Shown: positions 6,910 through 60,497 of the stretch, one piece after another
Layout of the letters: each line of letters opens with the position of its first letter
How positions within the stretch are numbered: the first letter of the stretch is position 1
Origin: a virus
Reading direction: 5' to 3' (one strand)
Virus record (IMG/VR): IMGVR_UViG_3300009103_001934
Coordinates: 64,001 to 128,000 of that record
DNA: 64,000 bases
Program-made: the position numbers and the translations under genes
The notes under the pieces: model-generated
What the model saw: the letters and a program-made list of their open reading frames with translations, nothing else
Told to the model about the DNA's origin: nothing
Database searches by the model: none

Positions 6910-7327
6910 GGGAGCGTACTGGATTCGATTTAGAACCTTACGCCAGATTGCAAGCAGAGGATAATGGTTGGCCTCTTTAAATATCCATTAACAACATATA
7001 TGCCAATAGTGATATTGACATGGAGTTCGCTCCTTCTTTAGCTGAAGCTGACGAGATTCTCGCCAAGTTCGGCTACGTGGAGGAAGAAGAGCTCCAGCTG
7101 GCAGCATAAGTTCTGCCCCGTCCTACTCTGGATGCTCGTTAAGGAGCTAGGGCGTCGACAGCGAGCAAAAAAACTAGGAAGGGTGAGGAGTCTAGGATAA
7201 ATAAAGTGCCTCCAACCTCGTGTGTAGTTGTCAGTGATGAAGCACGAAAAATAACACTGACTAAGCTTGTAGTACATTTGAGCCGATGGCTTTAAAGACG
7301 CGGGTTCGACTCCCGCCGCTTCCACCA
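6910..7327 (+). ncRNA. ssrA: tmRNA
   Basis: GGGAGCG pairs with CGCUUCC-ACCA, giving G3.U70; GGAUUCGA 5' motif; T-arm GCGGGUUCGACUCCCGC; tag ORF 7002-7109 ends in LAA*. Confidence 0.95.
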
Positions 7328-55819: not shown

Positions 55820-55865
55820 ATAAAAATAAACTTGAATTTAGTCAGGAAGTAGGCTAATATATAGA

Positions 55866-55938
55866 TGTGGGTGCAACGCCCACAGTTCGTTCATCATCAT
55901 CGAATCCTCCTGCGGGAAACTGCGGGGGGATTTTTTTT
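55866..55938 (+). ncRNA. Candidate ~70 nt small RNA
   Basis: TTGAAT-N17-TAATAT promoter (55832-55860), 5' hairpin, GAAA-capped terminator with T-run. Confidence 0.55.
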
Positions 55939-56332: not shown

Positions 56333-56770
56333 ACAGTGAGGGTAACACCTCCACGATCTTTGAGACAATTTAAGAAGGCGACTGTGGTAGTCCTCACGCA
56401 AGTGAGTGCCCTCGCGGGAAAGCCCCCAGTGGAAGCGCGACGAAACTGGACGGTGATACGATACCGGAGGGATGGGGTTCGACTCCTCACGCCCTAACAA
56501 TTTAAGCCTTGGGTGACGGAACAAACGTCCGACAGAGGAAACGGCCCAAGCAATTTTTACTCCGGCGACGGTTGGAGTAAGGGAATGGCTGAATAACCCT
56601 CCATCATAAGGGGTAAGGCACAGGGCCGCGCGTTAGAGTGCAATCGTATGAGGCGCGTGGTTCTGGTAGACTGGTAAACTTGAACTGTATTGTGCACTGG
56701 TCTTGATGGTAATGCAGCAATCCATCTTCCCATTAATTTAGCATAATCCTGAGGTTGGTGAAAACCATTA
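56333..56770 (+). ncRNA. Candidate large structured ncRNA
   Basis: No + strand ORF of 60 aa or more; many helices with G.U pairs, GNRA loops and a TTCGACT T-loop. Confidence 0.65.
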
Positions 56771-58173: not shown

Positions 58174-58241
58174 GCTTTTTTTGTGCGTTTGCGAATAACT
58201 TTCTTCTTGACGTAAAAGCGGATGTGTAGTACTATATAAAC

Positions 58242-58478
58242 ATGATGAACGAATTAGATCAACTCAAAGAAGACATTTGCATGAAGAGCTTCGGTCGCAG
58301 CCGAAGTCTCGCGCTAGCCGCAGGGCAGTGTGTTAAGTGTGGAACCTATGACCTCGACTTTCGCGATGAACCATCGCAACGTGAGTACAAACTCACCGTG
58401 TGGTGTCAGTCGTGCCAAGACGATTTCTTCGGGCTGGATTCGGACGGTGAAATCGCATGGGAGGAGGATGAGGATTAA
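58242..58478 (+). CDS. Small Zn-finger-like protein (leaderless)
   Basis: CVKC...CQSC; promoter TTGACG-N17-TACTAT. Confidence 0.65.
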   Translation: MMNELDQLKEDICMKSFGRSRSLALAAGQCVKCGTYDLDFRDEPSQREYKLTVWCQSCQDDFFGLDSDGEIAWEEDED

Positions 58479-58990
58479 TGGATATCGCAAACACACTTAA
58501 GCGCGAGGTCTATCGCAACCTTCACTTCAGGAACGAGACCGTTTATTCTGTACGTAAGGAAGGCCTTGTAGAGGGGCATGCCCTGATGGTCATCATGGAC
58601 GGAACGACTAAGACCCCAATTAAGTTTGCGGTCGGCCCTAAGGGCAACCAGCGCGTACGTGATGAAGAGCGCAAGAACGTGCACGCTGTTATCCGCGGGC
58701 ACATCAACAACGCCGTGTGGTATACAAGTGACATGGATGTGGATGCATTCGAAATGGGTCATGCTAAGGATGCCTGCGAGTACTTTAAAAAACAGTACAT
58801 GATCGAGCGTGAGGGATATCGATGGCTTGAGGTTGTATATAATCCTTACAAGTACCGCACCTTCATGACTCGTGACACGGATCCTTTCAGATCGAATGAA
58901 GACGTCTATGAGCCTATCTTTACCGCTCGCACAGTCATCATCGGCGAGACGTGCTGGGCGCAAGTCCGGGCGGAGCACGAGATGAATTAA
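58478..58990 (+). CDS. Hypothetical phage protein
   Basis: YRNLH...YSVR, KNVHA.IRG, YNPYKY..F. Confidence 0.65.
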   Translation: MDIANTLKREVYRNLHFRNETVYSVRKEGLVEGHALMVIMDGTTKTPIKFAVGPKGNQRVRDEERKNVHAVIRGHINNAVWYTSDMDVDAFEMGHAKDACEYFKKQYMIEREGYRWLEVVYNPYKYRTFMTRDTDPFRSNEDVYEPIFTARTVIIGETCWAQVRAEHEMN

Positions 58991-59006
58991 TATTTTTCCT
59001 CCATCA

Positions 59007-59052
59007 GGCGGGTCCGGGTTTTATGTGTTTGACCGGGCCCGCCTACTTTTTT
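59007..59052 (+). terminator. Hairpin terminator
   Basis: GGCGGGTCCGG...CCGGGCCCGCC then T-run. Confidence 0.65.
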
Positions 59053-59054
59053 GC

Positions 59055-59088
59055 TTGACATTTCGGGACCGGTCCCGCGGCTTGTCAA
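59055..59088. repeat. GGGACCGGTCCC element 3
   Basis: Core at 59065-59076 between TTGACA and TGTCAA; TTATCCACA follows at 59096. Confidence 0.9.
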
Positions 59089-59166
59089 GCTTTTTTTATC
59101 CACAACCTGTGAATTATTTTTTCATTTTTTTCTTGCCTTTTTCTGCTCAACCTGTATAATGCTCGC

Positions 59167-59295
59167 ATGAAGATTAAAGCAAGAGTAAGCAAACAAGGAT
59201 TTATGGGCAGCGCGTCCCGTGAACACAGAGTGAAGAAGGGCAAAGGCTCTTTCACTCGCAAACAAAAACACAAAAAAAGTATTGACACAAACTAG
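59167..59295 (+). CDS. arfA: ArfA-like alternative ribosome-rescue factor (42 aa, not in ORF track)
   Basis: MKIKARVSKQGFMGSASREHRVKKGKGSFTRKQKHKKSIDTN; KKGKGS[FY]xRKxKH motif; leaderless behind TATAAT. Confidence 0.7.
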   Translation: MKIKARVSKQGFMGSASREHRVKKGKGSFTRKQKHKKSIDTN

Positions 59296-59314
59296 GATAT
59301 AGGAGATAATCATA

Positions 59315-59746
59315 ATGATGATGGACGATATAAAACTGACCTACATTCCAGACTCTCACGACTGGATTAAAGTATATTTGCAAGCACCTAACGCAGAACT
59401 TGCCGAGGCGTGGTTTAATTCCTTTTGGAATCACAACGCTACAAGCCAAGACGAGCCAGAATGGATATTCAAAAACGAGTTGGCATTTTGTACCACTTGG
59501 GACAAGCTAACCAAGGCCATGAATGATATTTTTCTTTTCATCCTTCTTAATGATGATGAAGATGCTTTCAAAGGCGAGGAAGGCGGCGCGATGCCGTTTG
59601 CCAAGGAACTAGCCAAGGCCAAGATTGCAGAGATGAACAAAAAAGATTCATCCATGCGCTACGGTCGCCAAGGTCACGTTTACACACTCGGCGATGTTTA
59701 CACCAACGAGGAAAAGTCATTTTCTTCTGGAACGTGCGACGTTTAA
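59315..59746 (+). CDS. Hypothetical protein
   Basis: Promoter TTGACA-N17-GATAAT at 59282-59310. Confidence 0.65.
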   Translation: MMMDDIKLTYIPDSHDWIKVYLQAPNAELAEAWFNSFWNHNATSQDEPEWIFKNELAFCTTWDKLTKAMNDIFLFILLNDDEDAFKGEEGGAMPFAKELAKAKIAEMNKKDSSMRYGRQGHVYTLGDVYTNEEKSFSSGTCDV

Positions 59747-59783
59747 GCTTGACCTTTAACCCTCAAACCTTTATTATACTCTG

Positions 59784-60497
59784 ATGTTGAAATTCAAAGA
59801 TGCAAACGGTAAACTCAAGAAGATGGCAAAGAAGCTTGGCGTTAAGCTTAAAACCTTCACTCTCCCTGCGGGCTATACTTGCGGCGGTGCAAAGGATTGC
59901 CTCGCGTATGCCGACAGAAAAACGGGCAAAGTGAGAGACGGCAAGGAAACACAATTCCGTTGTTTCATGGCATCGCTCGAAGCCACCTTTCCAAGTCTCC
60001 GCGCTATGGTGTGGGAGAATTACGAGCAGTTACAAGCGGCACTGAAAAACGGCGTTGATGCTTGCGCGGATCTGATCCACAACAGCTTGCCAAAGAAGTT
60101 TGACGTAATGCGCGTTCACGTTGGCGGCGATTACTTCAGCAGGGCGTATTTGCAAGCGTGGATTGAAGTTGCCAAGCGAAACCCTGACAAGGTGTTTTAC
60201 TCTTACAGCAAAAGCTTGCACCTGTTCAAGCAATTTGCGTTACCGGAAAACCTTGTGTTGACCGCTTCCCGTGGTGGCAAGTACGATGATTTGATTGACC
60301 TCCACGCATGGAAAGAGGCGATTGTCGTATTCAGTGAAGAGGAAGCGGAAGAGCTTGACTTGGAAATTGACCACGACGATTCACACGCAGCGTTTGGCGC
60401 GGAGAATTTCGCGTTACTCATTCACGGCACACAGCCAGCAGGGAGCGCAGCAAGTGAAGCTTTGAAAGTCATAAAGAAAAAGGCAAGGGCTGCGTGA
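59784..60497 (+). CDS. gp88-like protein
   Basis: F.LPAGYTC.GA..C, CFMA, RVHVGGD.FS..Y..AW, FYSYSKS. Confidence 0.7.
   Translation: MLKFKDANGKLKKMAKKLGVKLKTFTLPAGYTCGGAKDCLAYADRKTGKVRDGKETQFRCFMASLEATFPSLRAMVWENYEQLQAALKNGVDACADLIHNSLPKKFDVMRVHVGGDYFSRAYLQAWIEVAKRNPDKVFYSYSKSLHLFKQFALPENLVLTASRGGKYDDLIDLHAWKEAIVVFSEEEAEELDLEIDHDDSHAAFGAENFALLIHGTQPAGSAASEALKVIKKKARAA

Follow-up and report, generated by a model that had tools for sequence, protein, structure and literature searches.

The C-terminal half of a 42-aa protein, encoded in the early region of a large uncultured marine T4-like phage, is homologous to the ribosome rescue factor ArfA. Judged from sequence and profile alignments, this homology is real but partial, being limited to the basic tail and to the strand segment that precedes it, and the protein is better described as an ArfA-like variant than as a member of ArfA proper. 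Taken as a whole, the mechanism that we propose, in which an early, constitutively made minimal relative of ArfA would act as a rescue factor, is held with slightly more confidence than doubt. The same phage also encodes a tmRNA.

The analysis was performed on a window of 64,000 nucleotides, corresponding to positions 64001-128000 of a complete IMG/VR virus of 178,487 bp. The presence of genes for RIIA, an ATP-dependent DNA ligase and an endolysin points to a T4-like myovirus. The closest cultured phage, as evaluated by RIIA, is Ruegeria phage RpAliso, and no host was assigned because the identity to this nearest relative is only 29%. The features discussed below are reported in Table 1.

Table 1. 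Features of the window relevant to the ArfA-like gene and to the tmRNA; positions refer to the window.
Feature	Position	Strand	Evidence and description
Phage tmRNA, one-piece	6910..7327	+	ARAGORN; Rfam RF00023, 125.7 bits against a gathering score of 47
Intrinsic-terminator-like hairpin	59006..59052	+	12-bp G+C stem and U-run; ends the upstream gene
Early-region palindrome copy	59053..59097	+	GCTTGACA..GGGACCGGTCCC..TGTCAAGC and T-run; second terminator-like hairpin
Sigma70-like promoter of the ArfA-like gene (predicted)	59133..59160	+	Consensus scan, 10 of 12 positions
ArfA-like gene	59167..59295	+	42 aa, ATG to TAG; stop codon 59293-59295
Second promoter-like site	59282..59310	+	TTGACA, 17 nt, GATAAT; overlaps the 3' end of the ORF, would serve the next gene

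The initial annotation had described an ORF with an ArfA-type core, located behind a palindrome copy and provided with its own promoter, and these elements were all found again. The 42-aa translation contains RVKKGKGSFTRKQKH, and the GGGACCGGTCCC palindrome is found at 59061-59095, just 5' of the gene. This palindrome copy, in which inverted repeats were found, belongs to repeat families D2 and D4. The upstream gene (58478-58990) is closed by the first terminator-like hairpin. When the region 58985-59110, containing both hairpins, was folded as RNA, an energy of -45.4 kcal/mol was obtained (z -4.6), and none of 200 shuffles was as stable. On the 3' side, the next gene starts at ATG 59315 or 59318, and no terminator was found between the two genes. 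A manA RNA motif (Rfam RF01745, 77.9 bits) is located in the same early region, at 56558-56736.

Within the 42-aa protein, residues 1-15 form a phage-specific N-terminal motif, and residues 16-37 are homologous to ArfA 26-47. A search with the ArfA HMM, proposed by the initial annotation as a check, did return PF03889, which was the sole Pfam match (E 2.3e-4), but at 21.0 bits, below the gathering score of 25.5, and confined to positions 26-44 of the 44 in the profile, that is to the C-terminal half. The same half of the model is matched by 41/44 and by 31/32 family members, with a best E of 6.7e-7, and a few relatives lie just above the gathering score (27.1 and 25.6 bits). The alignment of the phage family with an enterobacterial ArfA profile by HHALIGN gave a probability of 94.3% and an E of 1e-7 over 22 columns with 50% identity, phage residues 16-37 being paired with E. 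coli ArfA 26-47 (an offset of 10). By BLASTP, 11 of 18 residues are identical to residues 28-45 of E. coli ArfA, for which the arfA sequence of NC_000913 was used as reference. The only PDB match was the ArfA chain 5u4i_w, where phage residues 18-36 were aligned with native ArfA 28-46. E. coli ArfA carries KKGKGSYMRKGKH, in agreement with the earlier view of the core as the hallmark of ArfA. The assignment of the gene as ArfA-like thus stands for its C-terminal half, while membership in ArfA proper is not supported.

The aligned segment covers the positions by which ArfA contacts its partners. In ArfA, the strand Q27-E30 adds to the beta-sheet of RF2 domains II/IV, and the KGKGS stretch and the KH motif bind the mRNA entry channel (PMC8012679, PMC6299226). 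HHALIGN pairs phage S17-H20 with Q27-E30, R18 (corresponding to R28) and H20 being at least 90% conserved, and in an ungapped alignment K24-G-K-G-S28, R31 and K34-H35 correspond to ArfA K34-S38, R41 and K44-H45. Within the phage family, R18, H20, K24-S28, R31, K34 and H35 are invariant or nearly so. The phage C-terminus corresponds to residue 52 of ArfA, whose mature form has 52-55 aa (PMC8012679, PMC6299226).

Since the tail is a short, low-complexity sequence with a very basic composition, part of its ArfA score may come from composition or convergence. No canonical ArfA was retrieved by an exhaustive profile search of 1.84 billion representatives; a match of 19-22 residues is too short to reach significance in that library, so that the missing canonical ArfA does not count against homology. 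The 42-aa protein gave no match in NCBIfam and only weak matches, to families of unknown function, in PHROGs. DUF7230 (PF23876) did not match the window protein; it weakly matched 4 of the 32 family members (best E 0.007, under the 27-bit cut-off).

The N-terminal half is different. ArfA residues 1-25 have no counterpart in the phage protein, either by the Pfam profile (positions 1-25) or in the HHALIGN comparison with enterobacterial ArfA. This part of ArfA, in which the helix 15-24 lies, orders together with the RF2 switch loop and activates hydrolysis; the A18T mutant recruits RF2 and does not activate it, and F25 is a hydrophobic anchor in an RF2 pocket (V198/F217), on which RF2 specificity is based (PMC8012679, PMC6299226). 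No counterpart of A18 was found in the phage protein. The position of F25 is taken, in the ungapped alignment, by an invariant Ser15, and the nearest hydrophobic residues, (F/L/Y)12-M13, lie two to three positions N-terminal to it. The phage N-terminus is 10 residues shorter than that of ArfA and carries instead the family motif (K/R)-A-R-V-x-x-x-G-(F/L/Y)-M-G-S-A-S-R-E-H, with R6, G11 and M13 invariant. The same tail is found on unrelated N-termini in HTVC027P gp30 and in the proteins P0132 and P0137, and can thus be regarded as a portable module. In the AlphaFold model, the monomer is featureless and unstructured (pLDDT 62.5), as would fit a peptide folding only on binding; the model does not separate the readings considered below.

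In order to define the family, several collections were searched. A word-indexed search identified 43 clusters (90% identity), 38-74 aa in length, whose sources are all marine or aquatic metagenomes and which have the whole ORF in common; the longer entries are upstream over-calls running through the promoter region. Several of these clusters had been named 'stalled ribosome alternative rescue factor ArfA' by JGI/IMG; in the present record the gene is unannotated, as initially stated. The exhaustive profile search yielded 80 cluster representatives (50% identity) with E <= 0.001, nearly all from marine metagenomes or viral contigs; these, too, extend over the complete ORF. Two of its multi-repeat matches, P0129 and P0136, were rejected as relatives, being unrelated repeat proteins with DGLMGSAM repeats. 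In the ESM Atlas, the nearest clusters are proteins of 40-48 aa, with PF03889 on 33-82% of their members. Neither a megablast of the locus nor a tblastn of the 42-aa protein gave a match against 50,697 phage records; in the latter case, the low-complexity filter was probably responsible.

The gene is encoded on 32 IMG/VR contigs, most of which, according to CheckV completeness, are fragments of genomes of about 160-180 kb; this indicates that the contigs largely represent one lineage of large phages. When 185,579 species genomes were searched with two strict patterns, only 2 MAG contigs were found. One of them (CAZYHH010000017.1, 20.9 kb, from a Pseudomonadales MAG) is syntenic to the window, with genes for a clamp loader, a DUF932-like, the ArfA-like, a GP88-like and an L5 gp82-like protein. 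From this gene order it was recognized as phage DNA inside a gammaproteobacterial MAG, and its binning is at best a weak hint to the host group, or an artefact. The other (11.7 kb, from an Ignavibacteria MAG) gave a single PHROG match, of unknown function.

The coding sequence was evaluated on 24 unique phage alleles. Across the whole ORF, pN/pS is 0.26, with a pN of 0.19 and a pS of about 0.72, which is saturated; codons 4-12 alone gave 0.30. R6 is written with five codons and G11 with four, the residue remaining unchanged. Since pN/pS is low and these codons vary at a constant residue, the whole ORF from its first ATG is, by these substitution patterns, a real, selected protein sequence. A start at the invariant Met13, preceded by AAGGA, was considered and rejected, since codons 4-12 are under protein-level selection.

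The promoter is composed of a -35 box TTGCCT (59133-59138) and a -10 box TATAAT (59155-59160), separated by 16 nt. The ATG starts 6 nt past the end of the -10 box, and no Shine-Dalgarno motif was found in the 15 nt upstream of it. Because of this short distance, the transcript is predicted to start at the A of the start codon or at an adjacent base, which would produce a leaderless early mRNA. The same layout was defined as a TTGACA-like -35 box followed, after a spacer of 16-17 nt, by a TAnnnT -10 box whose end lies 6-7 nt from the start codon. Of 24 unique relatives, 15 show it, and its frequency among background ATGs is 4.4%. The geometry is retained, with a weaker -35 box, in relatives L002 and L003.

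Other start arrangements were observed in the relatives and in the neighbourhood. Relatives L009 (2950-3003) and L028 (2900-2950) show no sigma70-type promoter and carry TGGCAC-N5-CTGCT, with sigma54-like -24/-12 spacing, about 12 nt before the ATG of the ArfA-like gene; these sites also place the predicted transcript start at the start codon. In the window, promoter-start regions of neighbouring genes were inspected at 58207-58244, 59282-59320 and 59749-59786. For the early genes with ATGs at 58242 and 59784, a sigma70-like -10 box ends 6 nt upstream, and for the gene following the ArfA-like ORF the distance is 4 nt from the ATG at 59315 and 7 nt from that at 59318. By these positions, leaderless mRNAs seem to be the norm for the early genes of this region. 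An AGGAG is found 9 nt upstream of 59315, so that this gene may be translated in two modes. An sRNA at 55832-55938 is complementary to starts of the ATGATGATGAACGA type, and not to the start of the ArfA-like gene, ATGAAGATTAAAGC.

Cellular arfA mRNA is truncated at a hairpin within the ORF, and ArfA builds up only when trans-translation fails (PMC8012679, PMC6299226). In the window, the TAG follows KH after seven codons, and no terminator-like site was found inside the ORF. The gene, having a normal stop and no internal terminator, thus lacks the non-stop mRNA through which cellular arfA is controlled by tmRNA. The proposal of the initial annotation, that this copy escapes such control, is supported at sequence level by the normal stop and by the lack of an internal terminator or significant hairpin. 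The sole hairpin of the ORF, a modest one over codons 21-31 (59227-59257, coding for RVKKGKGSFTR), was rejected as an equivalent of the ArfA hairpin: it is not significant (z -1.9 for the whole ORF), carries no U-run and would cut within the core. In 30 of the 32 related loci, the stop is found 0-10 codons past the KH position. Two different arrangements were seen among relatives: in L005 (454-864), no stop closes the ArfA-like frame behind the core, and the frame continues for 136 codons into the next gene, as a fusion or a stop-less variant, and in L033 (2176-5685) the PKKGKGSFTRRAKHK stretch lies within an open frame of about 1,170 codons.

The tmRNA reported by the initial annotation was recovered at full length by both ARAGORN and Rfam, the RF00023 match covering model positions 1-374; the tag assigned by ARAGORN ends in LQLAA. 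Among the 32 related records, 6 have a tmRNA that scores above the Rfam cut-off, including all three of those at least 90% complete, while related records of 117-142 kb (69-83% complete) show none in the assembled part. The distance between the tmRNA and the ArfA-like gene is 52 kb. This distance, and the absence of the tmRNA from the assembled part of sizeable relatives, lead us to consider the two genes as co-carried accessories and not as a linked module. The claim of two rescue systems in one phage therefore holds as far as co-carriage of the genes is concerned, and not in the sense of a single module. ARAGORN missed the tmRNA in three relatives that score 124-137 bits by Rfam.

The tag core EAD(A/E)ILAKFG(W/Y) is conserved in the tmRNAs of the window and of two relatives (L038:173-575 and L042:147-551), and this conservation speaks for a tag frame that is functional. 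With 20-31 aa, the phage tags have an unusual length; they end in LAA, VAA or VTA. This length and the shared core suggest a lineage-specific tag, with a function beyond that of a minimal degron. No SmpB and no RF-1-domain protein were found in this phage, so that both rescue routes would depend on host partners.

According to the mechanism that we propose, host sigma70 RNA polymerase would start at the ATG, or within a base of it, and produce a leaderless early mRNA, from which, thanks to the normal stop codon, the product would be freed without trans-translation tagging, unlike cellular ArfA. The basic tail, KKGKGSF-R-K-KH, would probe the mRNA entry channel left empty in ribosomes that have stalled at the 3' end of a broken message. 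The SREH segment, aligned with ArfA Q27-E30, would dock a host class-I release factor, most likely RF2, and the N-terminus, KARVxxxGFMGS, would replace the activating role of the ArfA N-terminal helix. Peptidyl-tRNA would then be hydrolysed and the ribosome returned to the pool, with the phage tmRNA and host SmpB providing a second, independent route. In this scheme we infer, from the sequence, ribosome binding, recruitment and activation of the release factor, early constitutive expression and benefit for the phage.

A more far-reaching version, possible but rather doubtful, would see in this family a separate, phage-born class of release-factor-dependent rescue factor, which has kept the ArfA tail and docking strand, activates RF2, or both RF1 and RF2, via a new 15-residue N-terminal motif, and shows always-on leaderless expression beside tmRNA. 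If this were true, always-on rescue would replace the bacterial 'back-up only' logic in a large marine myovirus lineage, its likely purpose being to keep ribosomes free during host mRNA destruction or RNase-type defences. The purposes put forward by the initial annotation, which are of the same kind (decay of host mRNA, RNase-based defences), are speculative.

Only ArfA 26-47 is conserved in the phage protein, the activating part (1-25, with A18 and F25) being absent, as would be expected of a ribosome binder without rescue activity. Such a protein would fill the empty mRNA channel by means of its ArfA-type tail, and perhaps also of the RF2-docking strand; it would compete with host SmpB or ArfA, or hold RF2 closed like ArfA(A18T), which binds and recruits RF2 without activating it, and would be a modulator or inhibitor of host rescue or translation; the overlap of the sites occupied by the SmpB and ArfA tails is in line with competition. 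We consider this role unlikely. The tmRNA of the lineage itself needs the same channel, so that blocking it would be self-defeating, and the strong conservation of the N-terminal motif (three invariant residues, pN/pS 0.30) suggests a positive function. Moreover, ArfT and BrfA activate release factors through N-termini that are unrelated.

The lack of the F25 anchor, which explains the RF2 specificity of ArfA, bears also on the choice of partner. RF1 as well as RF2 could be recruited via the novel N-terminus, as for ArfT, by a separate class sharing with ArfA only the channel-sensing tail. The size (42 aa, in the same class as the 40 aa of ArfT) and the portability of the tail, carried by several unrelated N-termini, agree with this partner logic. 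It appears quite improbable, given that the strand aligned with Q27-E30 is conserved (R18, H20) and fits an ArfA-like docking on the RF2 beta-sheet, and that the ArfT tail, KKGGSTNKK, compared by its published description, is less similar than that of ArfA. That the protein is not a ribosome factor at all, but a small basic nucleic-acid-binding early protein whose KGKGS/KH likeness to ArfA is convergent, is highly improbable. In favour of this reading are the short, low-complexity sequence, rich in lysine and arginine, the sub-threshold Pfam match and the empty result of the filtered tblastn; against it, the 11 of 18 identities fall in an ordered, non-repetitive motif with S, Y/F, R and KH equally spaced, the HHALIGN E is 1e-7, and ArfA is the only match in both Pfam and PDB.

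If active as an ArfA-like rescue factor, the phage protein would be among the smallest known. It would represent a natural experiment splitting ArfA into a retained part, the channel tail with the docking strand, and a substituted one, the N-terminus that activates RF2, and would bear on how a release factor is switched on without a stop codon. Phages would in this case take charge of ribosome quality control by means of host back-up factors that have lost their regulation, beside phage tmRNAs. The value of the case is limited by the fact that IMG and one paper on a pelagiphage have already annotated ArfA-like genes in phages, and that activity is here a prediction.

Phage tmRNAs are already known, as are phage ArfA-like genes, from IMG annotation and from the HTVC027P transcriptome paper (PMC12753301); no functional study of any phage ArfA-like gene was found in the literature. 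The closest known system is ArfA itself (YhdL; beta- and gammaproteobacteria; PF03889; PDB 5U4I, 5MGP, 5MDV). Both are small basic proteins, sharing a 22-residue segment with the position of the RF2-docking strand, the pattern KKGKGS(Y/F)xRKxKH and its KH motif, and the phage C-terminus falls where mature, truncated ArfA ends. Unlike arfA, the gene lies on phage DNA and not in cellular genomes, has a normal stop and neither RNase III nor terminator hairpin, and would hence escape tmRNA control; its mRNA is predicted to be leaderless.

The published phage 'ArfA', gp30 of Pelagibacter phage HTVC027P, is transcribed during infection (PMC12753301). It is also small and shares the tail PKKG(K/R)GSFxR, and aligns to this family by HHALIGN with 85% over 18 columns. 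It differs in its length (58 aa), its unrelated N-terminus, the absence of the KH motif, the 57.6-kb, podovirus-size genome and the alphaproteobacterial host.

ArfT of Francisella tularensis (40 aa; PMC6299226) and BrfA of Bacillus subtilis are likewise very small and release-factor-dependent, with a basic C-terminal tail and an N-terminus unlike that of ArfA. They share such tails or the KH motif and have been judged independent inventions (PMC8012679, PMC6299226). Since ArfT is a rescue factor of this type with 40 aa, the size of the phage protein is sufficient. ArfT, like the phage gene, shows no non-stop-mRNA regulation (PMC6299226); it is known only from Francisella, and BrfA is made from a non-stop mRNA. 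Both were set beside the phage protein by description.

Finally, the window tmRNA resembles those of mycobacteriophages (PMC1475703) and of Stenotrophomonas phage Marzo (PMC8928761) in being an ordinary one-piece tmRNA, without a phage SmpB. It differs from them by the ArfA-like gene in the same lineage and by its long tag with a lineage-conserved core (EADxILAKFG...AA). The present case is distinguished by an N-terminal motif family limited to a large marine myovirus lineage, by the conserved geometry of a predicted leaderless promoter, and by the regular co-occurrence with a tmRNA bearing that lineage-conserved tag.
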